From an uncultured Actinomycetes bacterium (GTDB lineage: Bacteria > Actinomycetota > JAICYB01): a stretch of DNA of 64,000 nucleotides. The notes beneath the pieces were generated by a model. It was not told where the DNA came from. It was given only the letters and a program-made list of their open reading frames with translations, and ran no database searches. The position numbers were made by a program, and so were the translations under genes. This document shows, one piece after another, positions 38,758 through 63,993 of this stretch; position 1 is the stretch's first letter; every line of letters begins with the position of its first letter. The stretch spans positions 2,042,141 to 2,106,140 of the forward strand of contig CAWBKS010000001.1 of the NCBI GenBank assembly GCA_963789445.1, written 5' to 3'.

Positions 38758-39435
38758 ATGTCCCAGTCGCCCACCGATTGGCCCGTCCCTCCCGAAGTCA
38801 GCGAGCCGCAGCCTGCTCGCGAGCGGCGGTCGTGGGGGAAGGTGTCCCACTCCGACAGATTCCGGCGCCAGCGGCGGGACCTGCTGCGGGCTGCTGCCCG
38901 GCTCGCGGCGCGCGAGGGCTACGAAAAGACGCGCGTCGCCGACATCGTTGCCGAGGCGGGCCTTTCGAAGAGCACCTTTTATGAGCATTTCGCCTCCAAA
39001 GAGGACTGTTTCGTCGAGCTCAACGGCCGGACATCCAGCCAGATGCTCCGCGAGGCCGTCGACACGGCCGAAGCCACGATCGATCAGGGCCCGGCGGCAT
39101 GTCTTGGAGCGGTGATCCGCTCGTTGGTCGGATACGCCGACCGCAATCCCCGTCTAGCCGAGGTACTTAGGGCTGCTAGTGATGCTTCACAGCAGAACGT
39201 TGTCGTTCAACGCGAGCAGAACATGCACCGGGTCATCCATTTCTTCGTCACGCTCGGTCATCGTCTCGGTTCCCCTTTGACGGCCGACGAGCTCGACCTC
39301 TCTGCAACCATCATCGTTCGCGGTGTGACCGACATCCTGGCCGACTTGCGGCGGGAGGACCCCAAGAGTTTCGACCAGAGGCTGGAGCAGATCACTCGAC
39401 TGGGGTGTCGCGCGTTCGGGTTACCCGAAGCCTGA
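38758..39435 (+). CDS. TetR-family transcriptional regulator
   Basis: ATG 38758 with SD aagagg. N-terminal HTH LLRAAARLAAREGYEKTRVADIVAEAGLSKSTFYEHF. Confidence 0.85.
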   Translation: MSQSPTDWPVPPEVSEPQPARERRSWGKVSHSDRFRRQRRDLLRAAARLAAREGYEKTRVADIVAEAGLSKSTFYEHFASKEDCFVELNGRTSSQMLREAVDTAEATIDQGPAACLGAVIRSLVGYADRNPRLAEVLRAASDASQQNVVVQREQNMHRVIHFFVTLGHRLGSPLTADELDLSATIIVRGVTDILADLRREDPKSFDQRLEQITRLGCRAFGLPEA

Positions 39436-41228: not shown

Positions 41229-43027
41229 GGTGGTCGCCGCTCGGTCGAGCTCTGGACGACAGCGACCCGCGCGACGAGGGCGAGGCACGATTCGGCCGCC
41301 GCGAACTAAAGGTCCTGTGGCCGCACCTGAAGCCTCACTTGAAGCTCGCGCTGGCTTCCGGGCTTCTACTGATCGTCGCGCAAGCCGCTGCTCTCGCCAC
41401 GCCCTTCCTCATCCGGTACGGGATCGACAAGGGCATCCTCGCCAAGGACAACTCGCGCCTCACCATCGCCGCCATAGGTCTGGCGATCGGTGCGTTGGTG
41501 AACTGGATAACGCTTCGCAGCTCCATGATGCTCGGCGGCAAGTTCGGCGAGCGTGCGCTTCGTTCGATCCGGGTTCGGGTCTTCGACCATCTCACTCACC
41601 TCGATCTGGGATTCTTCGAACGCGAGAAGGTCGGGCGTTTGGTAGCGCGACTTACTTCCGACGTGGAAACCATCCAGCTCTTCGTCACGGAAGGGCTGGT
41701 CTCTTCCATCTCGACTTTGATGTATCTGGCCGGATCGCTGACCGTGCTCTTCCTTATGGACTGGAAGCTGGCCGCGGCCGGCTTCGCGGCCACGCTGCCT
41801 CTGCTGACGGTGGCCTCGATGATCTTCCGTGTGCGGTCGGAGCGCGCCTACCGTCGCGTGCGCGATCGCATCGCATCGGTTCTTTCGTTCATGCAGGAAA
41901 CGGTTCGGGGTGTACAGGTCGTCCAGGCCTTCGGTCGCGAACGCGTGAACAACCGGCGCTTCCGCCAGGTCAATGCGGACTGGGTGGAGGCAAACGTCGA
42001 GTCCTTCCGTCCGAGCGCCGTCTTCTTCCCGCTGGTCGAGTTCGTCGGCGTGCTGGGGACCGGTGTGCTCCTCGCCTACGGCGGCTGGCTTACTGCCCAC
42101 GGCGACATATCGGTCGGATTGCTGGCTGCGTTCATCCTGTACCTGAACACCACGCTGGATCCCATCACTCAGCTGTCGCAGCTGTACGACACGTTCCAGC
42201 AGGCGATGGCCGGTCTTGCAAAGCTCGCGAGTCTTCTCGATCGCAGCTCACGCTTGGTCGACAGCGACCATGCCGTCGATCTCGCATCCGTGAACGGATC
42301 TGCGGGCGTCGACGATGTAACGTTCCGCTATCGGGACGGGCTCCCGGACGCGCTGGCCGACGTCACCATCGACATCCCGGCCGGCGAGGTGCTGGCGCTG
42401 GTGGGTCCGACGGGTGCGGGCAAGTCTTCGATCGCCAAGTTGTTGCTGCGCTTCTACGACCCGACGTCCGGACGCATAACCCTCGACGGCACAGACCTTC
42501 GCGACGTCCGTTTGGCGTCACTCCGGGAACGGACGTCGATGGTGCCGCAGGAAGGGTTCCTCTTCCGCGGCACAATCCGGGACAACATCCGTTTCGGACG
42601 GCCCGATGCGACCGACGAAGAGGTCGAGCAGGTCTGCCGTCTGCTCGGGATCGACGAAGCGATCCAGCGCATGCCGCAGGGCTTCGACACCGAGGTGCGC
42701 GAGCGCGGAGCTGCGCTCTCCGGAGGAGAGAGACAGCTCATCGCCCTGGCGCGGGCCGTCCTGGTCGACCCGCGCCTGATGATCCTGGACGAAGCAACGT
42801 CCGCCCTCGATGCCGGAACGGAAGCGCACGTGGAGTCGGCGCTGCGACTCGCGTCCCACGGCCGCACGACGATCGTTATCGCACACAGGCTGTCTACGGC
42901 GGCCCGGGCGAACCGGGTGGCCGTGGTCGACCACGGCAAGATCATCGAGCTCGGCACCCACGACGAGCTGCTGGGGATCGACGGCGGCTTGTACGCGAAG
43001 CTCTACGAGCACTGGCTGGCGAATTAG
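41225..43027 (+). CDS. ABC exporter, fused permease/ATP-binding subunit (heterodimer partner)
   Basis: Overlaps the upstream gene by 4 nt. Walker A GPTGAGKSS, signature LSGGERQLIALAR and Walker B LMILDEATS. Confidence 0.9.
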   Translation: MRWSPLGRALDDSDPRDEGEARFGRRELKVLWPHLKPHLKLALASGLLLIVAQAAALATPFLIRYGIDKGILAKDNSRLTIAAIGLAIGALVNWITLRSSMMLGGKFGERALRSIRVRVFDHLTHLDLGFFEREKVGRLVARLTSDVETIQLFVTEGLVSSISTLMYLAGSLTVLFLMDWKLAAAGFAATLPLLTVASMIFRVRSERAYRRVRDRIASVLSFMQETVRGVQVVQAFGRERVNNRRFRQVNADWVEANVESFRPSAVFFPLVEFVGVLGTGVLLAYGGWLTAHGDISVGLLAAFILYLNTTLDPITQLSQLYDTFQQAMAGLAKLASLLDRSSRLVDSDHAVDLASVNGSAGVDDVTFRYRDGLPDALADVTIDIPAGEVLALVGPTGAGKSSIAKLLLRFYDPTSGRITLDGTDLRDVRLASLRERTSMVPQEGFLFRGTIRDNIRFGRPDATDEEVEQVCRLLGIDEAIQRMPQGFDTEVRERGAALSGGERQLIALARAVLVDPRLMILDEATSALDAGTEAHVESALRLASHGRTTIVIAHRLSTAARANRVAVVDHGKIIELGTHDELLGIDGGLYAKLYEHWLAN

Positions 43028-43448: not shown

Positions 43449-44654
43449 GTGGATCACGAAGTCCTGAAGGACGCCTTCGAACGAACGCGCATCGTCGGTG
43501 CGGCCGTGTCCGACTATCCGGTCACGCCCGAGATGTCCGCTTTCGACCATCACATCGTCGGCATCCAGAAGGCGCTCTCCGATGCTGGGCTCAAGCTCGC
43601 GGACGTCGACGGCCTCATCCTCGCTTCCGGAGGGATGGGGGGAGGCATGACGCCCATGGGCATGGCCGAGTACCTCGGCATCCGTCCGACCTTCGTGGAC
43701 GGTTTGAGCGTGGGTGGTTCGTCCTTCGTCTACCACGCAGCTCGGGCGGCCCTGGCCGTCGGGTCCGGCCTTTGCGAGGTAGCCGTTGTCGCGATGGGAC
43801 AGACCGGGAAATCGGGAAGCCGCCCCGGCCGAGGGATGCGCGGCGGTGGCGGAGGCGGGGGCCCGCCGCAAGGTTTCGGCTCCTTCTTCTGGGACTCCCT
43901 GACCGGGCTCCCGTTGATCGGTGCGTACGCGATGGCCGCTCGCCGGCACATGCACACGTACGGAACGACCTCGGAAGATCTGGCGGAGATCGCCGTAGCG
44001 GCGCGCTACCACGCATCGATGAATCCCAAAGCGCAGTACCAGGATCCGATAACAGTGGACGACGTTCTGTCTTCGCGTTGGGTGGCGGAGCCTTTGCATC
44101 TCTTGGACTGTTGCGTCGTCTCCGACGGCGGCGGCGCGTACGTCGTAACGACGGCAGAACGTGCGAAAGATCTGCCGAAGCCCGCCGTCCGCATGCTCGG
44201 CTACGGCGAGCGCATAGGTCACGCGGGCATCGGTCAGATGCCCGACTTCACAGAGACGGCCGCCGTCGACACCGGGAAGATGGCCTTCGGCATGGCCGGA
44301 CTCAAGCCGGGCGATATCGAGTGCGCCGAGCTCTACGACTCCTTCACGATCACCGTGATGCTTCTCCTCGAGGACCTGGGGTTCTGCAGCAAGGGTGAAG
44401 GAGGTTCGTTCGTTCGCGAGCACCTGCGCGTCGGCGGCCCGCTTCCCATCAACACCGACGGCGGCGGACTGTCCGCCGTTCATCCCGGCATGCGCGGGAT
44501 GTTCCTGGTGACGGAGGCGGTCCGGCAGATACGCGGTGAGCAAGGGCCGGGACGCGCCATCGCCCGCGAGGGCGGCGTCGACACCTGTTTGGTGCACGGC
44601 GTGGGCGGCCAGCTCTCGTCGCACGCGACATTGATCGTGGGGAAAGACCTATGA
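43449..44654 (+). CDS. Thiolase-superfamily protein (SCP-x/Ltp-type) lacking the nucleophilic Cys
   Basis: 401 aa with a thiolase-like C-terminal pattern (NTDGGGLSAVHPGMRGM, LVHGVGG). The position of the usual active-site Cys reads SVGGSSF. There is a Gly-rich insert GRGMRGGGGGGGPPQGFG. Confidence 0.8.
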   Translation: MDHEVLKDAFERTRIVGAAVSDYPVTPEMSAFDHHIVGIQKALSDAGLKLADVDGLILASGGMGGGMTPMGMAEYLGIRPTFVDGLSVGGSSFVYHAARAALAVGSGLCEVAVVAMGQTGKSGSRPGRGMRGGGGGGGPPQGFGSFFWDSLTGLPLIGAYAMAARRHMHTYGTTSEDLAEIAVAARYHASMNPKAQYQDPITVDDVLSSRWVAEPLHLLDCCVVSDGGGAYVVTTAERAKDLPKPAVRMLGYGERIGHAGIGQMPDFTETAAVDTGKMAFGMAGLKPGDIECAELYDSFTITVMLLLEDLGFCSKGEGGSFVREHLRVGGPLPINTDGGGLSAVHPGMRGMFLVTEAVRQIRGEQGPGRAIAREGGVDTCLVHGVGGQLSSHATLIVGKDL

Positions 44655-45061
44655 GCGAGATGCCGCGCAAGTTCTTCATGAGCCCGCCCGAGGGGGCCGA
44701 GCCGTTCTTCGAAGCCACCAAAGAAGGCAAGCTCCTCATCCAGAACTGCCCGTCGTGCGGACGTCGCCAGTTCTATCCACGCAAGCTGTGCATCCACTGC
44801 GGTTCCCCGGACGTCGAGTGGCTGCAGGCTACGGGCCGGGGGACGGTGCACACCTTCACCGTCATCCATCAGCAAGGAATGCCGGGCTGGCGCGAGGAGG
44901 TGCCCTACGTCTCGGCGATCATCGACCTCGAAGAAGGCGTGCGCATGACGGCAGGAGTCGTCGAGTGTTCGCCGGCCGACGTTCGGGTTGACATGCCCGT
45001 CGAGGTCACCTTCGTCGACGAGGGGATGTACGTCCTTCCGAAGTTCCGTCCGGCGAGCTGA
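44651..45061 (+). CDS. DUF35-type zinc-ribbon/OB-fold protein (thiolase partner)
   Basis: 136 aa with ATGA overlap. Zinc ribbon C-x2-C...C-x2-C (QNCPSCGRRQFYPRKLCIHCGS) followed by an OB-fold-like region. Confidence 0.85.
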   Translation: MSEMPRKFFMSPPEGAEPFFEATKEGKLLIQNCPSCGRRQFYPRKLCIHCGSPDVEWLQATGRGTVHTFTVIHQQGMPGWREEVPYVSAIIDLEEGVRMTAGVVECSPADVRVDMPVEVTFVDEGMYVLPKFRPAS

Positions 45062-45809: not shown

Positions 45810-46716
45810 CTACTTCAAGTCGTCGACGGCCCGGCGCAGCTCGTCGGGACCGAACGCACCGAGCCAGCGATCCTTGATGACTCCATCGGAGCCGACGAAG
45901 ATGGCCCAGGGCTCAGTTTGGAGCTTCCACTCGGCGAACGCGGGAGCCCATCCGTCCGGCGGCTTGTTCACGGCTTCCTCGTCGTTGCGCCACACCTCGA
46001 CGTGCACGAAGCCGATGTCGTCTCCGACCCTTTCCTTCTGCTCCTCGACGATGTCGACGACCGGCCCGCATGTGCGGGATGTGCAGAACTGAGGCGTAGC
46101 GAACACGAGAACGGCCGGCTTGCCCGACGTGACGGCATCGGCCACCGTCATCTCGTGCATCGAGCATGCAGGATCGCGCGTACAGATGGGCGAAACACCT
46201 CGTGGGTTGTCTTTGGTCGGGCTCTCGGTGGCCAATGCCTTCTGACCGACGCGCGGTGACGGGAACTCGTCGTCCTTCAAAACCTGGAACTGCGCCTTTC
46301 CACGGCCGCCGTCGAAGGAGACCTCGACTCCCCAAATGCCCGGATCGCTGAACTCGTGCCGAAATACGAAGATGTCCGTAACGTCTGTCGGCTCAGATTC
46401 GACCACCGATTCCTCGGCTTATTCGCTGACGGTCGACGTCAATGTCGATCTTTCTCTCGTCCGGAGTGACAACCCTTGCTTCGACGCCTTCCGGAACTAT
46501 TGGGCGTTCTCCGCGGAACACCGCGAAGGCCTGGCGGGAGTCACTGCGCGCTATGAGGACTGGCGTAGTGATTCGGATGTTAATGGCCTGGTTCGGGTCC
46601 GGAGCCTCGGGACCGAGGTCGTCGGCGGTGTCGCCGTCGCTCCCACCTCGAGAGCACGCCCAGGCCAATGCTCCGAGCCCGAGCGCGAGGAATCCACGTC
46701 GATCGATCTTGGACAC
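45810..46716 (-). pseudogene. Tat-signal thioredoxin-fold (redoxin) protein, apparently split by a frame disruption
   Basis: 46393..46716 encodes a twin-arginine signal (DRRGFLALGLGALAWA) plus the start of a beta-rich domain. 45810..46406, one frame over, continues it and carries FATPQFCTSRTCGP (CxxxC redoxin-like). The junction is confined to 46396-46418. The alternative is two ORFs overlapping by 14 nt. Confidence 0.55.
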
Positions 46717-49322: not shown

Positions 49323-50069
49323 TCATCGGCGAACATCACCCGGCTGTACGACCTGGCCCGGGAGCCTCAGCTCGCTGGGCTCGACGACCCGGGACAGGGA
49401 CACGATCTCGACCAGGCCCTCGGTCGTCGATCCGCCCCTATCGGTATCGGCCAGGTTGGTCCGGCGGCCCCGTAGAAGGATCCCGTCCTCCGCGTAGCAA
49501 AGCTCGAAGCGGAACCTCTCGGTGGCGGCCGTCGCTTGGGGCGCCGCCGTTCCTTCGTCCTCGCCGGCCGGCACGGCCTCAAAGCACTGCCCCTGCTCTC
49601 CTTCGATCCGTATGGGACGGCCGCTCTTGCGTACAGATGTGAAAGCGGTGGCGTCGAGAGGCGCGTCGAAAAAGGCGTCGAGCTGTGCGTTGCCGAATGT
49701 GCCGCTGGCCACGGGGTCGGCCAGGCACTTGACGCCGACGTCGGGATACGTCGTGCACGCGAAGTCCCCATCGGCGTTCCGGACGAACCAGCTGGTGAGC
49801 GTGATCGGCTCCCCGGTCTCCGGTTGGGTGGTCGTGTCCAGCTTGCGAAGTGAGACGGGCGGGTCCTGAACGATCTCCATGCGTGTGGTCACCGCGCCGG
49901 CCAGCTGACCGGTGACGGTGAAGCGGTAGATAGCGGCGTAGGTCGCATCCGCAGCTTTCGACGAGAGCTGGGAGAGCTCCTCGGCTCCGCCTTGGGGTGA
50001 GTTGTCGAAGATGCAGGACGAAAAGACGAAGACGAACAACAACACCATCACCTTCTGTGGTCGCCTCAT
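49323..50069 (-). CDS. Hypothetical lipoprotein embedded between purL and purF
   Basis: 248 aa with a lipobox-like VFVFSSC after MRRPQKVMVLLF. The start is 4 nt after the purL stop. No family was recognised. Confidence 0.65.
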   Translation of the reverse strand: MRRPQKVMVLLFVFVFSSCIFDNSPQGGAEELSQLSSKAADATYAAIYRFTVTGQLAGAVTTRMEIVQDPPVSLRKLDTTTQPETGEPITLTSWFVRNADGDFACTTYPDVGVKCLADPVASGTFGNAQLDAFFDAPLDATAFTSVRKSGRPIRIEGEQGQCFEAVPAGEDEGTAAPQATAATERFRFELCYAEDGILLRGRRTNLADTDRGGSTTEGLVEIVSLSRVVEPSELRLPGQVVQPGDVRR

Positions 50070-54188: not shown

Positions 54189-54671
54189 ATGACGAAGCTG
54201 CGGCAGGTCGGTCTGGACTTCCTGGATTCGGCTCCGCGCGTGTACGAATTCGAAGCGATCCTCGATGCGCCGCCGGAACGGGTCTTCGCCGCGCTGAGCG
54301 CACAGCCGACCACTTGGACTTGGTTCCCCGGCGTAAAGGGATTCCCCTATGAGGGGGCCGAGCCGTTCGGCGTCGGAACGAAACGCTCGGTCCGCGCGAC
54401 CGGCGTCACGTATCGCGAGACGATCGTGGCCTGGGACGAGCCGGAGCGCTGGGCTTACCGGATCGACGAGACGACGGCGCCAGTGGCCAAATCCCTCGTC
54501 GAGGAATGGACGATGCAACCGCAAGGGAACGGAGCGCTGGTCCGCTGGCGCTTCGCGATCGACCCCCGGATCATCTTCCGCTTGGGCGGTCCACTCGTCC
54601 GGATCGGCATGCGGGCAATGTTCCGCCGAGCGATGAGCAACCTCGAGCGCACATTGACGACATCGGGCTGA
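54189..54671 (+). CDS. SRPBCC (START/polyketide-cyclase-like) family protein
   Basis: 160 aa. The size and pattern (ILDAPPERVFAAL, WTWFPGV, RWAYRIDE) fit SRPBCC ligand-binding proteins. Confidence 0.7.
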   Translation: MTKLRQVGLDFLDSAPRVYEFEAILDAPPERVFAALSAQPTTWTWFPGVKGFPYEGAEPFGVGTKRSVRATGVTYRETIVAWDEPERWAYRIDETTAPVAKSLVEEWTMQPQGNGALVRWRFAIDPRIIFRLGGPLVRIGMRAMFRRAMSNLERTLTTSG

Positions 54672-54754
54672 CGGGTACGCCGCCGATGCTTTGATTTGGT
54701 GCAGGACACAGGCGAGTCGCATCCTTTTAAGAGATCGCTAACAGGAGGACCAGA

Positions 54755-55312
54755 ATGGACGCAGTCGAACGCATCGAGAAGGCGACACAGGAGGCCTCTA
54801 ACGCCGTCCACGGCGTGAAACCGGACCAGCTCGAACAGCCGACTCCGTGTACGGAGTTCGACGTGCGCGGGCTGCTGAACCACCTACTCGGTGGAATGAA
54901 CATGCTCTCCACGGCGGCGTCCGGCGGCAAGGCGGCGATGCCCGATGGCGATCTTGTCGGCGACGGATCCGAAGTCGGTGCCCGCTACGATGCGGCGCGT
55001 AACAAGCTGCTCGAGGCCATCCGGGAGCCGGGCGTGTTCGACAAGAACTGGGAGATGCCCTTCGGGACTCTGCCCGGACAGATGATGGCCGGCATCGCCT
55101 TCGTCGAGCACACCACGCATGCTTGGGATGTTCGGAAAGCGACGGGACAGGAAACCGCGCTCCCCGACGACCTGGCGCAGGAGGCGCTCGATCTCGTCAC
55201 ACCGATGGACGCGATGTGGCGGATGCCGGGTGTGTGCGGACCGGCCGTTCCCGTGCCGGACGACGCACCGGTCACCGATCGTTTGGTGGGATTCCTCGGC
55301 CGTCAGCCGTAA
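54755..55312 (+). CDS. DinB/mycothiol-dependent maleylpyruvate-isomerase-N-like (TIGR03086-type) protein
   Basis: 185 aa. QLEQPTPCTEFDVRGLLNHLLGG and HTTHAWDVRKATG patterns are typical of the actinobacterial TIGR03086 family. Confidence 0.75.
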   Translation: MDAVERIEKATQEASNAVHGVKPDQLEQPTPCTEFDVRGLLNHLLGGMNMLSTAASGGKAAMPDGDLVGDGSEVGARYDAARNKLLEAIREPGVFDKNWEMPFGTLPGQMMAGIAFVEHTTHAWDVRKATGQETALPDDLAQEALDLVTPMDAMWRMPGVCGPAVPVPDDAPVTDRLVGFLGRQP

Positions 55313-55315
55313 GCG

Positions 55316-55927
55316 TCAGCCGTCGAGGACGGCGGCGCGGATGTCGAGCCACGAGTTGTCCGGATAGGACAGGAACGGGATCCCCAGCTCGCGCGCGGCG
55401 AGCTCATCGTTGTCGTGGTCGCCTACATAAAGGGGCGAGTCGCCGGCTAGCTGCTCGAGCGCACCGCGAACGAGATCGGTCTTGGTGCGGGGATCCATGT
55501 CGTCGTCGCGCGCGTGGAGAGCGTGTATGTGGCCGTTCAGACCGATCGTGCGCAGGACGACCTTCGCGATGAACTTCGGCTTTATCGTCGCCACACCGAC
55601 AGCCACACCGGTGGCTACAAGCTCTGGGATCACCGTCCCTGCGCCCGGCATCGGAACGACGAGGCTCATTCGTTCAGTGTGTGCGGTCTCGAACACCGCG
55701 ATGGCGTCACTCATGCGCGCTTCGGCGATTCCGAGCTCGTTGAGGACCCAGTGCAGCGGGGGGCCGAGCGCGAAGGAAAGGTCGGCATCGGGCTTCAGTT
55801 CGATATCGAAAGCTGCGCACACGATGTGCAGCGACTCGAAGATCGCCGGCGCGGTGTCGGCGATGGTTCCGTCGAGGTCGGAGATCAGGGGTCCCCTGCG
55901 AGGGGCAGCCCGCGCGCTGCGAGGCAC
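55316..55927 (-). CDS. HAD-superfamily hydrolase (phosphoglycolate-phosphatase-like)
   Basis: GTG directly follows the purB stop. Motif I DLDGTIADT and motif IV-like VGDHDNDELAA. Confidence 0.82.
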   Translation of the reverse strand: MPRSARAAPRRGPLISDLDGTIADTAPAIFESLHIVCAAFDIELKPDADLSFALGPPLHWVLNELGIAEARMSDAIAVFETAHTERMSLVVPMPGAGTVIPELVATGVAVGVATIKPKFIAKVVLRTIGLNGHIHALHARDDDMDPRTKTDLVRGALEQLAGDSPLYVGDHDNDELAARELGIPFLSYPDNSWLDIRAAVLDG

Positions 55928-57226
55928 CTAAAGCGCTTCGAGCCGCTCGAAGACCACGCCGATGTTGGCGAGGAACCTGCGCTCGTCGAAGATCTCGTCG
56001 AGCTTCGGCCCGGGTAGGGCCTCCGAAGCAACGCGGTCCTCCTTGAGGATCTCGAGATACGAGCGGTCCTCTTCCCAAGCCTGCATCGCCGCGCCCTGGA
56101 CGATCCGGTAGGCGTCGTCGCGCGACAGGCCAGCGTCGATCAGAGCGAGCAGGACGTGCTGTGAGAAGACCAGGCCGTGAGATGCGTCCATGTTGGATCG
56201 CATCCGCTCCGGGTACACGACGAGTCCGTCGATGATCTCGGTGATCTCGGCGATAGCGAAGTCGCAGACGCACGATGCGTCGACGAGGGCGACCCGCTCC
56301 ACCGAGGACTGCGCAATGTCGCGTTCGTGCCACGTCATCACGCTCTCCAGCCCGGCCTGCGCATAGCCGCGCAGCAATCGGGCGAGCCCGGCCAGCCGCT
56401 CGCTCCGCCAGGGGTTGCGCTTGTGCGGCATCGAGGACGACCCCTTCTGCGCGCCTTGCTCGAATGGCTCTTCGGCTTCGCGCACCTCCGTTCTCGCGAG
56501 GTGCCGGATCTCGGTCGACAGGCGCTCGATCGATGCCCCGATGAGGGCGAGCAGATTGAGGTACTCCGCGTGACGGTCACGGTTGGTGATCTGGGTTGGG
56601 GCGGGCTCCGGCGCCAAACCTACGGCGGCAAGCACATGGGCTTCGACCGATGGCGGGACGCTCGCATAGCTCCCCACCGGGCCCGAAAGCGTTCCTACGG
56701 CTACCTGCCGCCGCACGAAGTGCAGCCGTTCGGTGTGGCGCGAGAACTCGAAGGCGTAGCCTGCGAGTTTCGCGCCGAACGTCGTCGGCTCGGCATGGAT
56801 GCCGTGGCTGCGTCCCATGCAGATTGTGTCGCGGTGATCGAGCGCTTTGCGCTTGATCACGGCGACCAAGGGGTGGAGTCCGCCGTCGAGCACGTCGCAG
56901 GCATCGCGCATCGCGATGCCCTGCGCTGTGTCGACCACGTCGTAGGACGTGAGCCCGTAGTGGATGAAGCGGCCTTCATCTCCGCACGTCTCCTGGACCT
57001 GCGAGACGAAGGCCGCCGTCTCGTGCGAGACCTGCGCGTCCAGCTCGGCGATGCGTGCGGCGTCGACCCGTGCCGTCGCGCGACACGCGTCGGCCGTTCC
57101 CGCAGGTATCCGTCCTTCTCTCTCCCAGGCGTCCAGAGCGGCCAGCTCGACGTCGAGCCATCGCTGGTAGCGTGCGTCGTCCGACCACAGCCGGCCCATC
57201 TCCGGGCGCGTGTACCGGGGGATCAT
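55928..57226 (-). CDS. purB: Adenylosuccinate lyase
   Basis: 432 aa. Contains IPRYTRPEM, TSYDVVDT, GRSHGIHAEPTTFG and the signature SSSMPHKRNP. Confidence 0.95.
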   Translation of the reverse strand: MIPRYTRPEMGRLWSDDARYQRWLDVELAALDAWEREGRIPAGTADACRATARVDAARIAELDAQVSHETAAFVSQVQETCGDEGRFIHYGLTSYDVVDTAQGIAMRDACDVLDGGLHPLVAVIKRKALDHRDTICMGRSHGIHAEPTTFGAKLAGYAFEFSRHTERLHFVRRQVAVGTLSGPVGSYASVPPSVEAHVLAAVGLAPEPAPTQITNRDRHAEYLNLLALIGASIERLSTEIRHLARTEVREAEEPFEQGAQKGSSSMPHKRNPWRSERLAGLARLLRGYAQAGLESVMTWHERDIAQSSVERVALVDASCVCDFAIAEITEIIDGLVVYPERMRSNMDASHGLVFSQHVLLALIDAGLSRDDAYRIVQGAAMQAWEEDRSYLEILKEDRVASEALPGPKLDEIFDERRFLANIGVVFERLEAL

Positions 57227-57579
57227 CCGGCCATCCTAGAAGGGCCGGATCGGGCCATCCTTCTGCCCCAGCCCTTGGCCCACGTGCTCACCGGCTTGAA
57301 CAACGTCATGAGCTCGCGTCCCTCTTTAGTCAAGTCGAATCCTTCGTCGCCGAGCTCGACGATGCGCGCGTCTCGCAGCTCGCGCAAACGCTGATTCAGC
57401 ACGCTCGGGGACATGTCATCGCATCGATCACGCAGCTCCCGAAAGCTCGCCGGGCTGGAGTCGAAGAGCTCCCAGAGGATCCGCAGGGTCCAGCGGCGTC
57501 CGAAGAGATCGAGCAACGCCATGATCGGTCGCCCGGTCTGTGAACCCCGAACGGGCCGGCCGGGCACACCTGCGGCCAT
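57223..57579 (-). CDS. HxlR-type winged-helix transcriptional regulator
   Basis: ALLDLFGRRWTLRILWEL ... MSPSVLNQRLRELRDARIV pattern. The stop overlaps the purB ATG (ATGA). An alternative start is ATG 57522. Confidence 0.78.
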   Translation of the reverse strand: MAAGVPGRPVRGSQTGRPIMALLDLFGRRWTLRILWELFDSSPASFRELRDRCDDMSPSVLNQRLRELRDARIVELGDEGFDLTKEGRELMTLFKPVSTWAKGWGRRMARSGPSRMAG

Positions 57580-57627
57580 CTGCGTCCTCCTCGTAGGAGC
57601 GCTACGCCTTTCGAAGCGCTACGGATA

Positions 57628-58383
57628 TCATAGCGCAGGCGCGAGGATCTGCGGCCGGTCCATCTCGCACAGCGGGATGTCGGGCGACTCGCCGAGGGGC
57701 ACCGACCGCCATGCTTCGATCTCGACCGGCCGGGTGTTGTGGATACCGACGGCCAGCCCCAGCCGGTATTCGCCGGCGAAGTCGAGAGATCCGAATGTCC
57801 ACCGGTCGGGATCATCACTCCAGCCTTCGGCGAAGCGTGCTCTGATCGGGCGCTCTCCGGGCGGGAACCAGACACGATCTGCTCCATGGATGAATCCGAC
57901 ACCGCGAGCTTTCAGATACGCCTCCTTGAGCGTCCAGCACTCGAGGAAGGACGATTCGAGCTGCTCGTGAGGGAGATCGCGCAAGGCGCGGGCCTCGTCC
58001 CGGGCGAGAAGGCCGAAAATCTCTGTCGCGTCGAAACCGATCGGGTATCGCTCCATGTCCACACCGATGGGAACTTCCCTCGACACAGCGCACACGACGG
58101 CGCCCCGCGAGTGCGAAAGGCTGAAAGACAATCCGGGCGCATCTTCGACGCGAAGCCGTCCCACTTCATTGGTGGTGAAGCGCCAAGACTCTGGGGACCG
58201 AGGAACAAGTCTGGACAGCACGGTGCGAACAAGGGCGCGCGTCGTTAGGAACTCAGAGCGGCTCTCGTCGCTGCGTAGTCTCGCGTATCTCCGGCTCTCC
58301 TGGGCGTCGAGCAAACAGGCGTAGGAGTCCAGCCGATCCCCGGTGTGGTCCACGTACGCGAGCCAGATGTGCACCTTGCTCAA
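57628..58383 (-). CDS. Sfp-type 4'-phosphopantetheinyl transferase
   Basis: TTG 58383 overlaps the NRPS stop (TTGA), with GTG 58374 as an alternative. Contains FSLSHS, PIGVDMER and WTLKEAYLKARG motifs. Confidence 0.85.
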   Translation of the reverse strand: MSKVHIWLAYVDHTGDRLDSYACLLDAQESRRYARLRSDESRSEFLTTRALVRTVLSRLVPRSPESWRFTTNEVGRLRVEDAPGLSFSLSHSRGAVVCAVSREVPIGVDMERYPIGFDATEIFGLLARDEARALRDLPHEQLESSFLECWTLKEAYLKARGVGFIHGADRVWFPPGERPIRARFAEGWSDDPDRWTFGSLDFAGEYRLGLAVGIHNTRPVEIEAWRSVPLGESPDIPLCEMDRPQILAPAL

Positions 58384-61300
58384 GACGAGCCTCCGCTTGA
58401 GCGAGTGAGTTCGGAGATCCGGCGCCCGGGGTCGTGAACGATCCGCTCCAGCAGCTCGACGTATGTACTCCCGAAACGCTCCGCCCCTTCCGGATCGAAA
58501 CGGTCCGTGTCGATCGACACCGCGACCACGAGCCGGCCTTCGCGGCGGCGGATGACGAATTCGAGGCCCCAACCTTGAGTCGACGGTTCGGCCGCCTGCC
58601 GCGTGACTTCAGCGTCGCCCAAGTGCAGCTCGACCGATTCTCGGTCGACGAGCTGGAACGTGACCTGATGGGCCGGCGCCTGTAGGTGCGCCTTCCGAAA
58701 GGCCCGGGTGATCTCCGAGAAGGGAAGCTCCAGGTTCGCCGCCAGGCCCAGGGCCTTGGTACGAACGCGATCGAGCAGCACCTCGAAGGTGGGGTCGCCC
58801 GAGAGATCGGCACGCAGCGGAAGGAGGTTGATGAAGAACCCGACGGCGCGCTCGAGGTCGGGGTGCGTCCGCGTTGATGCGTATGTGCCGATGGTTATGT
58901 CCTCGGCTCGGCACGTAGCTCCGAGAAGCGCTAAGAAGGCTGCCGACAGCCCCATGTACGGGGTTGCATTGCGCTCGGCGCACATGCCCACGAACGATCT
59001 CGTGACATCACCATCGATCGTGAAGTGCTGGATGCGGCCCGTTAGGTCCTGTACGGCCGGTGCCGAGCGCGAGAACGGAAACTTCAGCGCTGGAGAAGCG
59101 GGAAAGAGCTCACTCTTCCAATAGTCGATCCGCGCCTTGTAGGCCGGGCTCCCGCGCGCGAGCCATCGTCTGACCCAGGCCGCGTAGTCCATGGCTTGCA
59201 CTCCGGGCTCGGCGAGTCGAGGCGCCTCTCCTCGGCGGAATGCGTCGTACAGGATGCCGAGGTCTTCCAGCAGCACGCCCGTGCTGTCGGCGTCGAAAGC
59301 GAGGTGGTGCATGGAGAGAACCAGCCGGTGGTGGTCGGCTCCCAGCCGGATCAACGTCGCGCGGATCAAGAGGCCGCCGGAAAGCTCGAAGGGCATCAGC
59401 GACTCGTCGAGGACTAACTGCGCAACGGATCCTTCGTCGCTCCCGCTCACGTCGAGAACGCGCAGCTCGAGGCCGCGCTTTGTGACTTTCTGCACCGGGC
59501 CCCGAAGACGCGCTCTGTACTGAGTGCGAAGGGGCTCGTGGCGGGCGACCAGTGCGGCCAGCGCCGATTCCAACGCCGCTACGTCGAGCGGGCCCCGCAG
59601 ATCGAATATCGACGTCACGTTGTTGCCCAGGCGCCGCTTGGTCCACATCACCCGCCAGTTGGCCTCCTGGAAGTACGACAAGGGATGAGCGCGAGCACGG
59701 GACACCGGCTCGATCGGGGGCCGGTCTTCGGTCGGGGATTCGTGGTGGTCGATCAGCTCCGACAATTCGGCCACCGTCGGGTGATCGAAGAGCGCGCGCA
59801 GAGGCAGCGCGGTACCGAACACCTGTTGGACGCGAACCAGCAGACGCGCGCCGAGCAGAGAGTGACCACCCAGATCGAGGAAGTGGTCGTCCGCGCCTAC
59901 ATCGGCGACGCCCAGGATCTCGCTCCATAGCCGAGCCATCGTCTCTTGCGTTTTCCCCTGCGGTGCGACGCGCGCCGTTCCCGTCCGGACGACTTCGACG
60001 TCCGGTGGAACCAGCGCGCCTCTATCGATCTTGCCGCTCGATGTCAGCGGCAACACATCGAGCTCGACTAACAGGGATGGGACGAGTTGCTCAGGCAACG
60101 ACTCGGCCAACGACGCACGCAGCACGGCCGGCGTCAGCATCGACCCCTGTTCGGCGGTGAAGAACGCGACGAGTTGAGCGTCCCCGGACGCGTCCTCGCG
60201 CGCAGAGACCGCGGCTCCGCTTACACCGGCAACGGCTACGAGTGCCGCTTCGATGTCGGCCACCTCGACGGTGTGCCCGCGGACCTTCAGCCGGCCGGGC
60301 TTGCGTCCGCAGTACTCGTAAGTGCCGTCGGACCGGAGCCTCCCGAGGTCGCCTGTTCTGTACCGGCGCAGGTTTCCACCGCGCGGGTCGTCGGAGAAGA
60401 CCGACTCCGATCTTTCGGCGTCCCCGAGATATCCCGGGCTGCCCGTTATGCCCACAGCAACGATTTCGCCCACTTCACCCTCGGGAACGACCCGGCCGTC
60501 CTCATCGAGCAGCAGGATCTCGATACCGCGCGTCGGCCGCCCGATAGGGAACGGAGCGTCCGCTGCTTCGCTGCCGTCCGACTCGTGTAATGCGATCGAA
60601 CCCATCTCGGTCGCGCCGTACTTGTTGATGAGACGGCACTCTTCTCCGAAGATCCTGTGCACCGTGACCAAGTCGTGGCCGAATACCGGCTCACCTCCTA
60701 GGAATACCGCGCGGACACCTTCTAGTCGCCTGGACGGTTCCAGGCTTTCGGCGAATCTTCTGAACACGGTGGGCGCCCAGTCCAATGTCGTGATCCCGTT
60801 CTCAGTGATCCAATCCGCCATTCCGACCAAACCCTCGATGCGCATGTCGCGGATATGGATGGATGCGCCGGTTAGGAGTCCTGCATACGTCTCTGTGAAT
60901 GTGCCTACGAAGTTGTAGGGACGCAGGATCGTCAATCGATCGTGGCGATCGATACCCATGGCCTCGACGTGCACCCGGGCCGAATAAGCCAGAGCTCGAT
61001 CGGTTCGCGTTACTCCTTTCTGACGGCCCGTCGAGCCCGAGGTGAACAGGATGTGGGAAACCCTGTCGAGCTCATCACCGTCATGCGGGCGGCCGTGCGG
61101 ACTCTGACGGAACATCTCGCTTATCTCGTCTGCAGAGATCCGAGTGGGTTCGACCGCCACGAAAGTCTTGCCGGCCATCTGGGAGCCGAGCATCGTCACC
61201 ACCTGCTCGATGCCGGGCCCGGGATCGGCGACGACCGCAGCCGGCCCCTCGCCGAATTCGGTGATCATCCGCGCCGCCGCCTCCCCGGCGGCGGCCTCGA

Positions 61301-61442
61301 GGTCTCGGTAGGTCAAGGACTCCGTCCCATGGCGAACGGCCAGCCGATCCTTGTACCGATCAGAGATGAGCCGGAAGCGGTGAACAACGGACTTCATTTC
61401 AGCGTCCGACGGAAACTCTTCGAAACCGTGCCCGGCGCTCAA
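58380..61442 (-). CDS. Single-module nonribosomal peptide synthetase, domain order A-T-C
   Basis: Adenylation motifs LFTSGSTGRQKGV, NKYGATE, YRTGDL and PLTSSGKIDR. Carrier domain LGGHSLLGARL (~59856-59870). Condensation domain with HHLAFDAD (59287-59309). TTG 61442 overlaps the upstream stop, with ATG 61397 as an alternative. Confidence 0.9.
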   Translation of the reverse strand: MSAGHGFEEFPSDAEMKSVVHRFRLISDRYKDRLAVRHGTESLTYRDLEAAAGEAAARMITEFGEGPAAVVADPGPGIEQVVTMLGSQMAGKTFVAVEPTRISADEISEMFRQSPHGRPHDGDELDRVSHILFTSGSTGRQKGVTRTDRALAYSARVHVEAMGIDRHDRLTILRPYNFVGTFTETYAGLLTGASIHIRDMRIEGLVGMADWITENGITTLDWAPTVFRRFAESLEPSRRLEGVRAVFLGGEPVFGHDLVTVHRIFGEECRLINKYGATEMGSIALHESDGSEAADAPFPIGRPTRGIEILLLDEDGRVVPEGEVGEIVAVGITGSPGYLGDAERSESVFSDDPRGGNLRRYRTGDLGRLRSDGTYEYCGRKPGRLKVRGHTVEVADIEAALVAVAGVSGAAVSAREDASGDAQLVAFFTAEQGSMLTPAVLRASLAESLPEQLVPSLLVELDVLPLTSSGKIDRGALVPPDVEVVRTGTARVAPQGKTQETMARLWSEILGVADVGADDHFLDLGGHSLLGARLLVRVQQVFGTALPLRALFDHPTVAELSELIDHHESPTEDRPPIEPVSRARAHPLSYFQEANWRVMWTKRRLGNNVTSIFDLRGPLDVAALESALAALVARHEPLRTQYRARLRGPVQKVTKRGLELRVLDVSGSDEGSVAQLVLDESLMPFELSGGLLIRATLIRLGADHHRLVLSMHHLAFDADSTGVLLEDLGILYDAFRRGEAPRLAEPGVQAMDYAAWVRRWLARGSPAYKARIDYWKSELFPASPALKFPFSRSAPAVQDLTGRIQHFTIDGDVTRSFVGMCAERNATPYMGLSAAFLALLGATCRAEDITIGTYASTRTHPDLERAVGFFINLLPLRADLSGDPTFEVLLDRVRTKALGLAANLELPFSEITRAFRKAHLQAPAHQVTFQLVDRESVELHLGDAEVTRQAAEPSTQGWGLEFVIRRREGRLVVAVSIDTDRFDPEGAERFGSTYVELLERIVHDPGRRISELTRSSGGSS

Positions 61443-62275
61443 ACGTGACGTGTGAGCCACTCCTCGACTGCAGCGAAGAACACCTCGGGCTCCTCCACCC
61501 ACGGGAAATGCGCACTGTCCTCGAGCCAAACGAGCTCGGCGTCGGGGATCGCGGTCGACAGCCGCTTCGCACACTCGGGAGTTGTTTGCAGGTCGTAACG
61601 CCCGCACGTCACCAAGGTGGGGCAAGCGATGCGGTCGAGCTTGTCGACAACCGACCATCCGGAGAGGGCCATGAACCCCAGGATCGCTGTAGACATGTCA
61701 CGAATCACTTCCGAAAAGTCGGAGACCAGAACTGCCGGGTCCGTTTTGTGGACATAAGCCCGCGCGTGCCCGAGCGACAAGCCACCGGTCGCCTCATCGG
61801 GGGAAGGTGGGGACGAGAACAACTTTTGCGCAGCCTCGACCGCTTCTTGAGAAACCGTCGAGGGGTCGGGGCGCTCAGCGAGCTCTTCGGGTGTCGGCTC
61901 GAACCTTCCGGGAGATGTGTCGAAGAGCATGAGGTGAGTAAGAGATTCGGGATACGTCGTTGCGTACTCGAGGGCGATGAACCCTCCGAATGAGTGACCG
62001 AGCAAAGCGATCTTCTCGTATCCGAGGTGGTGTCGCAGCGCGTCAACGTCGGCGGCAAGCTGGGGAATAGTGATCGTCTCGGACGGTGGGCGATCCGAGC
62101 GCCCGTTGCCTCTCTGGTCCAGGTAAATGAACTGCAGGTGGTCGTTCAGGGGACCGAAAGAGGCCTTGAAGTAGGTGTGGTCCATGCCGAGCCCGCCGTG
62201 CAACGCGATACATGGGATCCCTTCGCCGAGTACCTCGTAATAGAGGTTGGTCCCGTTGATCAGAGCCGTCGACAC
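61439..62275 (-). CDS. Alpha/beta-fold hydrolase (proline-iminopeptidase-like; possible thioesterase role)
   Basis: 278 aa. HGGLGMDH, LDQRGNGRSD and the nucleophile elbow GHSFGG. GTG lies 3 nt after the purE stop. Confidence 0.85.
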   Translation of the reverse strand: MSTALINGTNLYYEVLGEGIPCIALHGGLGMDHTYFKASFGPLNDHLQFIYLDQRGNGRSDRPPSETITIPQLAADVDALRHHLGYEKIALLGHSFGGFIALEYATTYPESLTHLMLFDTSPGRFEPTPEELAERPDPSTVSQEAVEAAQKLFSSPPSPDEATGGLSLGHARAYVHKTDPAVLVSDFSEVIRDMSTAILGFMALSGWSVVDKLDRIACPTLVTCGRYDLQTTPECAKRLSTAIPDAELVWLEDSAHFPWVEEPEVFFAAVEEWLTRHV

Positions 62276-62278
62276 GAT

Positions 62279-62731
62279 CTAGCTCTCGGCTTGGCGGCGC
62301 TTGAACTCCTCGAATCGCTTCGCGAGGTCTTCGTCGGCCGTCGCCAGGATCTGAACGGCCAGCAATCCTGCGTTCTGGGCGCCGTTCACGGCAACGGTCG
62401 CAACGGGCACGCCTTTGGGCATCTGCACGATCGCCAGGAGCGAGTCCATACCGCCAAGACCGCCCGATTCGATGGGCACTCCGATGACCGGCCGAGCTGT
62501 ATGGGCGGCGACCACGCCGGGCAGATGGGCGGCCAGACCGGCACCGCAGATGAAAGCCTTCACCCCCCGGCCCTCGGCCTCCTTTATGTAAGCGACCAGC
62601 GCCTCGGGCTTCCTGTGAGCGCTGATCACGTTGGTTTCCGACTCGACGCCGAAGTCGGCGAGCGCCTCCTCGGCCCGCTTCATCACGTCGCGGTCCGACT
62701 CCGAGCCCATGAGAATGGCGACGAAACTCAC
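62279..62731 (-). CDS. purE: N5-carboxyaminoimidazole ribonucleotide mutase
   Basis: 150 aa. Contains ILMGSESD, SAHRKP, GAGLAAHLPGVVAA and PVIGVP motifs. GTGA overlap with purD. Confidence 0.93.
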   Translation of the reverse strand: MSFVAILMGSESDRDVMKRAEEALADFGVESETNVISAHRKPEALVAYIKEAEGRGVKAFICGAGLAAHLPGVVAAHTARPVIGVPIESGGLGGMDSLLAIVQMPKGVPVATVAVNGAQNAGLLAVQILATADEDLAKRFEEFKRRQAES

Positions 62732-63993
62732 GAGATCCCTTCTGCTATGTCGCGCCGGAAATGCCGGCCGTCCATCTCTATCTTCTCAACTGCGTCGTAG
62801 GCGCGCTTGCGTGCCTCAGGGATGGACGAGCCTAGTGCGCTGACGTTCAGAACGCGCCCGCCTGCACTTGCGAGCTTGCCGTCCTTGGTCGTCGTGCCGG
62901 CGTGGAACACGGCAACGTCGCCCAAGGCCTCTGCGCTCTCGATCCCGGAGATGGGTTTCCCTGTTTCGTAGTCCTCGGGATACCCGCCCGACGCAACGAC
63001 GACGCTTACGCAAGAGTCATCGGTCCATTCGAGCTTGGTGCCGCTCAAACTTGATGTCGCACACGCAAGAAGCACCTCTCCGAGGTCGCTGCGCAGACGC
63101 GGCATCAACACTTGGGTCTCGGGATCGCCGAACCGGCAGTTGACCTCGATCAAACGCGGACCCTTCGCGGTGAACATCGCCCCTAGATAGAAGCAACCTT
63201 TATACGGACGGCCTTCGGATGCCAGTCCGTCGATCAGTGGAAAGATGATCTCGCTCACGGCTTTCTCGCGAGATTCGGGCGCGAGCCAGGGGACGGGCGA
63301 GTAAGAGCCCATCCCGCCGGTGTTGAGGCCCTCATCGTTATCGCGAGCGCGTTTGTAGTCCTGCGCCGGTTCGAGGATGAGCTTGGTCTCGCCATCGGTG
63401 AGACAGAAGATCGAGGTCTCACGTCCTTCGAGGAACTCTTCGACCACAACGCGATTGCCGGAATCGCCGAAGACGCGCGCGCGCATAATCTGTTCGATGG
63501 CGTCGGTTGCTTCTTTGTGGTCGCGGCAGATGAGGACTCCTTTGCCGGCCGCGAGTCCTTCGGCCTTGACCACGACCGGTCCGGCGATGGTCTTCGCGTA
63601 GTCGATCGCCGCGTCGGCATCGTCGAATGTCTCGCCTTCGGCCATTGGAGCCCCGTGCCGGCGCGCCAGCTCGCGGCAGAACACCTTGCTTCCCTCTATC
63701 TCCGCCGCTGCTTTGGACGGACCGAAAACGGTCAGCCCTTCATCTGCGAAGACGTCGGCGATCCCCGCTACGAGCGGGATCTCGGGCCCGACGACGGTGA
63801 GATCTATCGCTTCGTCTCTGGCAAGGTTTGCGAGCCCTTCGAGGTCGTCCACCTTGACGTCGACCGTGCGGCCTAGGGTCGCCATGCCCGGGCTCCCGGG
63901 AGCCGAGATCAGCTCATCGACGCTGGGGCTCCGCGCGAGCTTCCAGGCCAGCGCGTGCTCACGTCCGCCGGAGCCGATGACGAGGACGCGCAT
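62728..63993 (-). CDS. purD: Phosphoribosylamine--glycine ligase
   Basis: 421 aa. Contains MRVLVIGSGGREHALAWKL, ATP-grasp patterns (VVKAEGLAAGKGV, LEEFLEG) and NCRFGDPETQ. Confidence 0.95.
   Translation of the reverse strand: MRVLVIGSGGREHALAWKLARSPSVDELISAPGSPGMATLGRTVDVKVDDLEGLANLARDEAIDLTVVGPEIPLVAGIADVFADEGLTVFGPSKAAAEIEGSKVFCRELARRHGAPMAEGETFDDADAAIDYAKTIAGPVVVKAEGLAAGKGVLICRDHKEATDAIEQIMRARVFGDSGNRVVVEEFLEGRETSIFCLTDGETKLILEPAQDYKRARDNDEGLNTGGMGSYSPVPWLAPESREKAVSEIIFPLIDGLASEGRPYKGCFYLGAMFTAKGPRLIEVNCRFGDPETQVLMPRLRSDLGEVLLACATSSLSGTKLEWTDDSCVSVVVASGGYPEDYETGKPISGIESAEALGDVAVFHAGTTTKDGKLASAGGRVLNVSALGSSIPEARKRAYDAVEKIEMDGRHFRRDIAEGIS

Follow-up and report, generated by a model that had tools for sequence, protein, structure and literature searches.

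Why should a nonribosomal peptide synthetase (NRPS) be encoded in the middle of genes for purine synthesis? The question arises from a 64-kb stretch of DNA (hereafter the window) of an uncultured Actinomycetes bacterium (assembly GCA_963789445.1, contig CAWBKS010000001.1, positions 2,042,141 to 2,106,140), in which an NRPS gene and a gene for an Sfp-type 4'-phosphopantetheinyl transferase (PPTase) lie between purE and purB. The explanation that we favor, and consider fairly probable, is that a two-gene NRPS-PPTase cassette was acquired by this uncultured Actinomycetota lineage and placed in a hypervariable slot of a conserved purine operon. Our literature search found no paper describing an NRPS within a purE/purB operon.

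The inserted unit

The open reading frames (ORFs) read from the sequence give the minus-strand order purD, purE, alpha/beta hydrolase, NRPS, PPTase, hxlR, purB and HAD. L001 in the following list is the closest related locus in our comparison, and A, T and C stand for adenylation, thiolation (carrier) and condensation.

62728-63993, minus strand: purD (glycinamide ribonucleotide (GAR) synthetase), first gene of the array within the window, from the ORF list; 81% identity to L001 purD
62279-62731, minus strand: purE (N5-carboxyaminoimidazole ribonucleotide (N5-CAIR) mutase type); PF00731 (AIRC) 1.5e-61; TIGR01162 197.7 bits, above the cut-off of 149.6
61439-62275, minus strand: alpha/beta hydrolase of proline-iminopeptidase/esterase type, 278 aa; Abhydrolase_1 1.6e-24; GHSFGG nucleophile elbow
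58380-61442, minus strand: single-module A-T-C NRPS, 1020 aa from TTG 61442
60030-61385, minus strand: adenylation domain; AMP-binding (PF00501) 5.6e-45; AMP-binding_C (PF13193)
59751-59939, minus strand: thiolation (carrier) domain, LGGHSL; PP-binding PF00550 1.1e-16
58404-59681, minus strand: C-terminal condensation domain, elongation type; Condensation PF00668 5.6e-66
57628-58383, minus strand: Sfp-type PPTase, 251 aa; ACPS PF01648 1.4e-10
57618-57634, minus strand: conserved palindrome GCTATGATATCCGTAGC, likely HxlR operator, from alignment with related loci; holds a -10-like TATGAT
57223-57579, minus strand: HxlR-family winged-helix regulator; PF01638 2.4e-11, 43.8 bits against a cut-off of 20.8
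55928-57226, minus strand: purB (adenylosuccinate lyase); Lyase_1 and ADSL_C; 88% identity to L001 PurB
55316-55927, minus strand: HAD-family phosphatase; PF13419 (HAD_2) 5.7e-20; kept after purB in L001, L002, L003 and L083

Relatives were collected by a purB-anchored scan with one genome per species, and all proteins of the window were compared by tblastn with the 89 loci fetched. The scan returned 5 close relatives, Actinomycetota metagenome-assembled genomes with PurB identities of 73-88%, and many distant ones. A look-up of public assemblies for the exact PurB of the window gave no match. The closest, L001 (PurB 88%), reads purD-purE-[83 nt]-hxlR-purB-HAD-MDMPI-SRPBCC-purC-purQ-purL. Eight related Actinomycetota loci keep the frame purD-purE…(hxlR)-purB-…purC-purS-purQ-purL and hold no NRPS or PPTase, and in the distant Actinomycetota L006, L011, L016, L019, L021, L026, L042 and L048 purD, purE and purB are contiguous and followed by purC-purQ-purL. 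The PPTase had no match in any of the 89 loci. The NRPS matched a single one of them, the unrelated locus L081, where the gene downstream of this nearest NRPS homologue is not a PPTase; a scan of genome contigs with the NRPS as query found no relative.

The sequence-only reading of this DNA had treated the hydrolase, NRPS and PPTase as a possible inserted trio, and this comparison of neighborhoods upholds it for the NRPS and PPTase, which are absent from the relatives, and not for the hydrolase. Homologues of the hydrolase are many, and on contigs long enough to judge they stand directly after purE, often with an overlapping stop and start, and with no NRPS or PPTase: the contexts are purA…purD-purE-hydrolase-CMD-HxlR-Redoxin-purB-HAD… for P0125, purD-purE-hydrolase for L082, and purD-purE-hydrolase-TPR-x-HxlR-purB-HAD… for both L083 and L084. 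The orthologues in these NRPS-free relatives are 57-71% identical to the hydrolase of the window, and their identity follows that of the pur genes (PurE 88% and hydrolase 71% in L082; PurE 66% and hydrolase 57% in L083), which suggests that the hydrolase was vertically inherited. The homology between the window and L082 ends at the hydrolase stop codon. On this comparative evidence the hydrolase is a resident purE partner in the lineage and not part of the insert; because it follows purE in relatives without the NRPS, the inserted unit is read as two genes rather than three, NRPS and PPTase, of ~3.8 kb (57628-61442). By the same comparison, the two genes are specific to the window's lineage.

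The hydrolase had also been proposed as the releasing or editing member of a trio, and as a type II thioesterase it was considered and rejected. It resembles the type II thioesterases of NRPS and polyketide synthase clusters in its alpha/beta fold, its GxSxG nucleophile and its position beside an NRPS gene, but it falls below the cut-off of Pfam Thioesterase (PF00975; 25.0 against 26.4 bits), its solved relatives in the PDB are esterases and proline iminopeptidases, and its orthologues adjoin purE in genomes without any NRPS. Its NCBIfam match to TIGR01250 (132.7 bits) is also below that family's cut-off.

Both cassette proteins are distant from anything known. The best NRPS homologue, P0001 (44% identity), is likewise a stand-alone A-T-C protein with the same end point, and the genes beside it code for a creatininase-family protein and ABC permeases and do not belong to the pur set; the longer near homologues P0002 and P0003 are A-T-C-A-T proteins. 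The best PPTase homologue has 43% identity, and among ~5.8 billion clustered proteins none exceeded these two values. The 3 best PPTase homologues on longer contigs (P0243, P0244, P0248) had no A-T-C partner, and no conserved NRPS-PPTase cassette could be defined from them. As for traces of the insertion itself, no direct or inverted repeats flank the cassette, the ORF list of the window shows no tRNA- or IS-like (insertion sequence) features, and the cassette has no anomaly in GC content, third-position GC (GC3) or codon usage, its composition being host-like.

A variable slot and a conserved palindrome

Between purE (or purE-hydrolase) and hxlR/purB, the relatives hold different and functionally unrelated genes:

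L001: empty
L002, 5458-9895: S8 subtilase (Peptidase_S8) and a CMD-like gene, on the other strand; also a methyltransferase gene between purD and purE
L004, 7891-9963: adenylate-cyclase-type (Ad_Cy_reg/Guanylate_cyc) and lysyl-oxidase-like (Lysyl_oxidase) proteins
L005, 972-1832: SLT transglycosylase
L083, 8873-10525: TPR protein and collagen-repeat protein
L003: purE and purB directly adjacent

Because the cargo at this one position is functionally unrelated from relative to relative, the comparison points to a site that is permissive to insertion and not to a metabolic tie with purines. The downstream edge of the slot is a palindrome with the consensus GCTA(Y)(S)AT(W)TCCGTAGC, which occurs exactly once, immediately upstream of hxlR, in L001, L002, L005 and L083, the loci in which HxlR orthologues precede purB. 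In the window there is 1 copy against 0.01 expected by chance. The palindrome holds a TANNNT-type hexamer (TATGAT in the window), and the PPTase frame enters its left arm and stops at a TGA inside it. The positions of hxlR together with the upstream palindrome are:

Window, 57223-57634
L001, 9606-9992
L002, 9609-10004
L005, 1918-2295
L083, 10603-10988

The palindrome is probably an HxlR operator, as predicted from these alignments, together with the promoter of a separate hxlR-purB-HAD unit. This bears on the suggestion that the NRPS genes are expressed with purE and purB as one unit: with a conserved palindrome and a -10-like hexamer before hxlR, the hxlR-purB-HAD genes are probably promoted separately, and that suggestion is not supported. 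Promoter and terminator scans of the cassette gave nothing above shuffled expectation, the promoter scan with an E. coli-type consensus that says little for Actinomycetota. We infer that the cassette would belong transcriptionally to purD-purE-hydrolase, with possible read-through.

Of separate note, hxlR is coupled to purB (by an ATGA overlap in the window, L002 and L083) and is preceded by the palindrome GCTAYSATWTCCGTAGC in each hxlR-bearing relative; such a link between adenylosuccinate lyase and a regulator of the redox or electrophile type is unusual in its own right.

Domains of the synthetase

Pfam finds AMP-binding, AMP-binding_C, PP-binding and Condensation in this order in the NRPS, that is, A-T-C. 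In the adenylation domain, A2 is degenerate, and the following motifs of the A1-A10 series were located: LTYRDL, FTSGSTGRQKG (A3), NKYGATE (A5), YRTGD (A7), GRKPGRLKVRG (A8) and SGKIDR (A10), the last with its lysine kept. Its A4 region, FVGTFTE, aligns with FDGSALD of LgrA, and by the offset from 1AMU Val164 falls on position 235 (GrsA numbering), so that a valine stands in place of Asp235, the residue that binds the alpha-amino group in domains activating alpha-amino acids. The 3 nearest NRPS homologues also lack Asp235, with Ala, Ser and Thr. The specificity code V-G-T-D-F-G-K-S-I-K was derived by hand from the GrsA positions, and its position 278 was set by the IT-x5-P(S/T) spacing in the homologue alignment; in this hand-derived pocket the pair Asp278/Lys322 is unusual. 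In keto-acid-activating domains, an aliphatic residue is typical at position 235 (PMC10949194). The window protein has Val235, and neither the Pfam nor the NCBIfam output for it includes a ketoreductase (KR) domain. Because Val replaces Asp235, we propose that the substrate is probably a carboxylic acid other than an alpha-amino acid (a 2-oxo, 2-hydroxy or other acid). The segment between A2 and A3 is shortened, by ~19 aa relative to P0001 and by ~30-50 aa relative to typical A domains, and residues 100-140, with a predicted local distance difference test (pLDDT) score of 60-75, are the sole weak part of the A domain in the AlphaFold2 (AF2) model.

In the carrier domain, the GGxS serine lies in LGGHSL, at residues 510-514 of the 1005-aa form of the protein; it is Ser528 in the 1020-aa numbering and is invariant in the homologue alignment. 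The condensation domain has the motifs RHEPLRT (C2), MHHLAFDA (C3), MDYAAW (C4) and VGFFINLLPLR (C5); HHxxxD is thus present, and the final G of HHxxxDG is replaced by A. When ranked against the PDB, the domain groups with the elongation C domains of Txo1/2, DhbF, FscG and TycC and is far from a starter C domain. A reading of the last domain as an epimerization (E) domain, giving a GrsA/TycA-type A-T-E protein, was rejected: the domain has the C4-C6 motifs and none of those specific to E domains, and the PDB matches include no E domain. No carrier domain follows the C domain, in the protein or in the window, and a motif search of the 64 kb revealed neither an MbtH-like gene nor any further A, T or C domain.

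The AF2 model of the NRPS has a mean pLDDT of 83.7. Its best fold match is the A-PCP-C (adenylation-peptidyl carrier protein-condensation) fragment of DhbF (5u89), and LgrA also matches over the full length. The A-domain model has a TM-score of 0.81-0.82 to PheA 1AMU, and the C-domain model 0.86 to HtmB2-CT and 0.77 to the PCP-C didomains 2jgp and 7kvw. HtmB2 could be identified no further than as a protein of the hangtaimycin pathway, and a literature search on PDB entry 8Z0Q found nothing. Since no T domain lies downstream and characterized A-T-C enzymes provide a precedent (PMC10720950), it is plausible by analogy that the terminal C domain hands the acyl group of the protein over to a soluble acceptor.

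PPTase, junctions and start codons

Sfp-type PPTases have the ACPS-superfamily fold and are ~230-250 aa long. The PPTase of the window belongs to this type (group II) by its ACPS-superfamily match and by the two motifs (V/I)G(V/I)D, here GVD, and W/F-x-x-KE-(A/S)-x-x-K, here WTLKEAYLK; it also has FSLSHS, and the best solved relative is Sfp itself (1qr0, 2.6e-11). It is not an equivalog of HetI (86 against 370 bits) or AusB (50 against 225 bits) in NCBIfam.

The genes are tightly joined. The purD stop and purE start overlap as GTGA; the purE TAG is 3 nt from the hydrolase GTG at 62275; the hydrolase TGA shares TTGA with the NRPS TTG at 61442; and the NRPS TGA shares TTGA with the PPTase TTG at 58383, which has GGAGG 6 nt upstream. 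After the PPTase stop, 48 nt precede the hxlR ATG at 57579, the hxlR TGA overlaps the purB ATG at 57226 as ATGA, and the HAD GTG at 55927 directly follows the purB TAG. Four-base overlaps are ordinary in high-GC operons, and for this reason translational coupling at the locus is not itself unusual. The gene order, overlaps and gaps claimed in the sequence-only reading are all present in the sequence, and Pfam confirmed each of its domain assignments (hydrolase, A-T-C NRPS, Sfp-type PPTase, HxlR, purB, HAD); its central observation, that a purine operon encloses an NRPS gene together with a dedicated Sfp-type PPTase gene, tightly joined to the neighbors, is borne out.

The public gene call starts the NRPS at ATG 61397, giving 1005 aa and a 45-nt gap after the hydrolase. 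The stretch between TTG 61442 and this ATG encodes the residues GHGFEEFPSDAE; since these can be aligned to the conserved N-termini of the 3 nearest homologues, TTG 61442 is the better-supported start. For the PPTase, the database gene call is the 251-aa form from TTG 58383. In the public protein collection, the 1005-aa NRPS record (58380-61397, P0361) is filed in a '90%' cluster under an unrelated 41-aa representative; this database artefact explains why the homologue search with the NRPS missed its own record.

Proposed explanation and its alternatives

We suggest the following scheme for the cassette. Flanked by the resident purE-hydrolase pair and by the hxlR-purB-HAD unit with what is probably its own palindromic operator/promoter, it would have no promoter or terminator of its own and would be transcribed by read-through from purD-purE-hydrolase, that is, from the pur promoter. 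Translation would be low, by re-initiation at two TTG starts, both of them weak and both overlapping the stop of the preceding gene. The PPTase would then turn the carrier domain to its holo form by phosphopantetheinylating Ser528, and the A domain would adenylate and load a carboxylic acid without an alpha-amino group. The terminal, elongation-type C domain could release the acyl group by forming an amide or ester with a nucleophile not on this protein, which may be a soluble amine or alcohol or a carrier protein acting in trans. The hydrolase may or may not be recruited; the mechanism does not require it. The location would thereby reflect a permissive, constitutively expressed insertion site, the cassette hitch-hiking on a housekeeping operon, and not purine chemistry.

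Several points weigh against parts of this scheme. Host-like GC3 and codon usage give no compositional proof of a horizontal origin, and the preference for one gain over multiple losses rests on parsimony. The absence of an own promoter depends on the E. coli-type scan, weakly informative for Actinomycetota. The substrate class is deduced from one residue and a hand-made specificity code, and keto-acid modules usually carry the KR domain that is absent here. With its A2-A3 segment shortened and modeled at low confidence, the A domain is not assured of activity. Finally, the C domain is similar to ordinary elongation C domains, for which the acceptor is normally bound to a carrier, and such a partner may be encoded elsewhere in the 2.67-Mb genome, of which 64 kb were seen.

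This last point leads to an alternative that we consider unlikely, in which an assembly line is split, the A-T-C protein being its first subunit, and the acceptor is an aminoacyl-carrier protein or an A-T(-TE) subunit (TE, thioesterase) encoded elsewhere. The ranking of the C domain with those of Txo1/2, DhbF, FscG and TycC, which use carrier-bound acceptors, would fit it, as would the A-T-C-A-T architecture of the nearest longer homologues; yet no other A, T, C or MbtH-like motif occurs within the window, and P0001 shares both the stand-alone architecture and the end point. We think it improbable that the cassette is inactive and the decaying remainder of what was once a larger cluster. The shortened, diverged A2-A3 segment with its low pLDDT and the degenerate A2 motif could be signs of decay, and the same may be said of HHxxxDA in C3, of TTG at both cassette starts and of the lack of adjacent partner or transporter genes. 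Against this, the frame is open for 1020 codons with coding-type GC content at the three codon positions (GC1/GC2/GC3 0.69/0.48/0.77), all catalytic residues are kept (A3, A7, A8, the A10 lysine, the carrier serine and HH..D), the PPTase that goes with it is intact, the model is confident for the folds of A-core, T and C, and P0001 conserves the same architecture at 44% identity. We likewise see little chance that the pair was already at this site in the ancestor and that independent losses removed it from the relatives. The host-like composition of the pair and the evident tendency of the slot to rearrange would agree with such losses, but the pair is absent from every related locus, including the closest two (L001, and L082 up to its contig end), and from all outgroups with purE-purB contiguous, and the lack of any homologue above 44% identity in the clustered proteins also speaks against it.

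There remain the readings that give the purine setting a meaning. In the one put forward by the sequence-only reading, hydrolase, NRPS and PPTase are one self-sufficient system in which the hydrolase edits or releases, and the product is derived from, or responsive to, PurE/PurB intermediates; this we regard as distinctly improbable. It is true that the three genes are adjacent and coupled, that the hydrolase has a weak Thioesterase match of 25.0 bits, below threshold, and that such an enzyme could have been recruited once the cassette was in place. However, orthologues of the hydrolase stand after purE in genomes that have no NRPS or PPTase, and its best relatives are esterases and proline iminopeptidases. 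The idea of a purine-linked product fares no better, as the relatives' cargo at the same position is unrelated in function and the nearest A-T-C homologue, P0001, lies beside a creatininase-family gene and ABC permeases and is not pur-linked. A stricter version, which would hard-wire the cassette to purine flux so that it is co-translated with purD-purE and its product reports or buffers purine synthesis, appears highly doubtful. In this same version the Asp235-less A domain, with its Asp278/Lys322 pocket, would load a small polar or dicarboxylic acid (e.g., fumarate- or aspartate-derived, from the PurB/PurC steps) and the C domain would couple this acid to a soluble amine or hydroxyl. A milder reading is more likely, in which the purE|hxlR junction would serve as a dedicated 'cargo slot', where a housekeeping operon drives exchangeable accessory genes.

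Neighboring genes

Downstream of HAD, the array goes on with purC, purS, purQ, purL, an uncharacterized gene, purF and purM; the locus is a near-complete de novo purine supercluster. Two plus-strand genes at 54189-55312 break this minus-strand cluster between HAD and purC. They encode an SRPBCC/polyketide-cyclase-like protein and an MDMPI_N (DinB/mycothiol-type) protein, and the pair stands at the same place in L001, L003 and L083. The minus-strand ORFs 49323-50069 and 45810-46406 have coding-type GC3 and no Pfam match; the former sits inside the purine cluster, between purL and purF.

A gene pair for fused TMD-NBD (transmembrane domain-nucleotide-binding domain) ABC exporters lies on the plus strand at 39405-43027, ~15 kb from the NRPS, and beside it, at 43449-45061 on the same strand, are a thiolase-like gene and a ChsH2-type OB-fold/zinc-ribbon gene. 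Farther away on the plus strand, 5877-7888 holds adjacent, overlapping genes of 332 and 338 aa that both match the catalytic domain of cobalamin-independent methionine synthase and resemble a split or duplicated MetE-like pair, and 20557-22071 holds a wax-ester synthase/diacylglycerol acyltransferase (WS/DGAT) gene, which fits an actinobacterial host.

Significance and comparison with known systems

If active, the cassette would give a compact and probably constitutively expressed NRPS in an uncultured actinobacterial lineage of small genome (contig of ~2.67 Mb), an enzyme without close relatives and probably with a non-amino-acid substrate. Its size, ~3.8 kb with its own PPTase included, makes it tractable for heterologous expression. 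The locus also illustrates how adjacency and translational coupling can falsely suggest a functional 'trio', and it documents an accessory-gene slot in a core biosynthetic operon, bounded by a conserved palindrome that is predicted to bind a regulator. It does not open a new biological principle.

Among known systems, ausA-ausB of Staphylococcus aureus, a two-gene operon of the aureusimine NRPS and a dedicated Sfp-type PPTase, is alike in that the NRPS gene is directly followed by its own PPTase gene, and NF047350 (AusA) and NF047349 (AusB) are among the NCBIfam matches of the window. The scores, however, are far below the family cut-offs (342 against 2500 for AusA and 50 against 225 for AusB); AusA is an A-T-C-A-T-R protein, ending in a reductase (R) domain, that makes a dipeptide aldehyde, and ausAB is not embedded in a housekeeping operon. 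The DhbF A-PCP-C fragment (5u89) and LgrA are the best sequence and fold matches over all three domains of the window NRPS, but they are pieces of multimodular lines with a downstream A-T, whereas the window NRPS ends right after its C domain. The keto- and hydroxy-acid A domains of the cereulide, valinomycin and hectochlorin type share with it an aliphatic residue at position 235, here Val, a feature described for keto-acid domains (PMC10949194). They differ in having an in-line ketoreductase and a code that otherwise mimics that of the cognate amino acid, where the window NRPS has no KR domain and Asp278/Lys322.

The characterized single-module A-T-C enzymes that acylate soluble acceptors, fungal AneB, ThmA and the fumiquinazoline A-T-C (PMC10720950), have the same domain order with no downstream carrier, so that the C domain must release the T-bound acyl group. 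These enzymes are fungal and activate amino acids, whereas the window NRPS is bacterial, lacks Asp235 and is distant in sequence, and for it release to a soluble acceptor is a prediction from architecture and from this precedent. The locus is an orphan single-module A-T-C NRPS with a dedicated Sfp-type PPTase, a kind already known; what is unusual is its place inside a core purine operon and the evidence there for a recurrent cargo slot.

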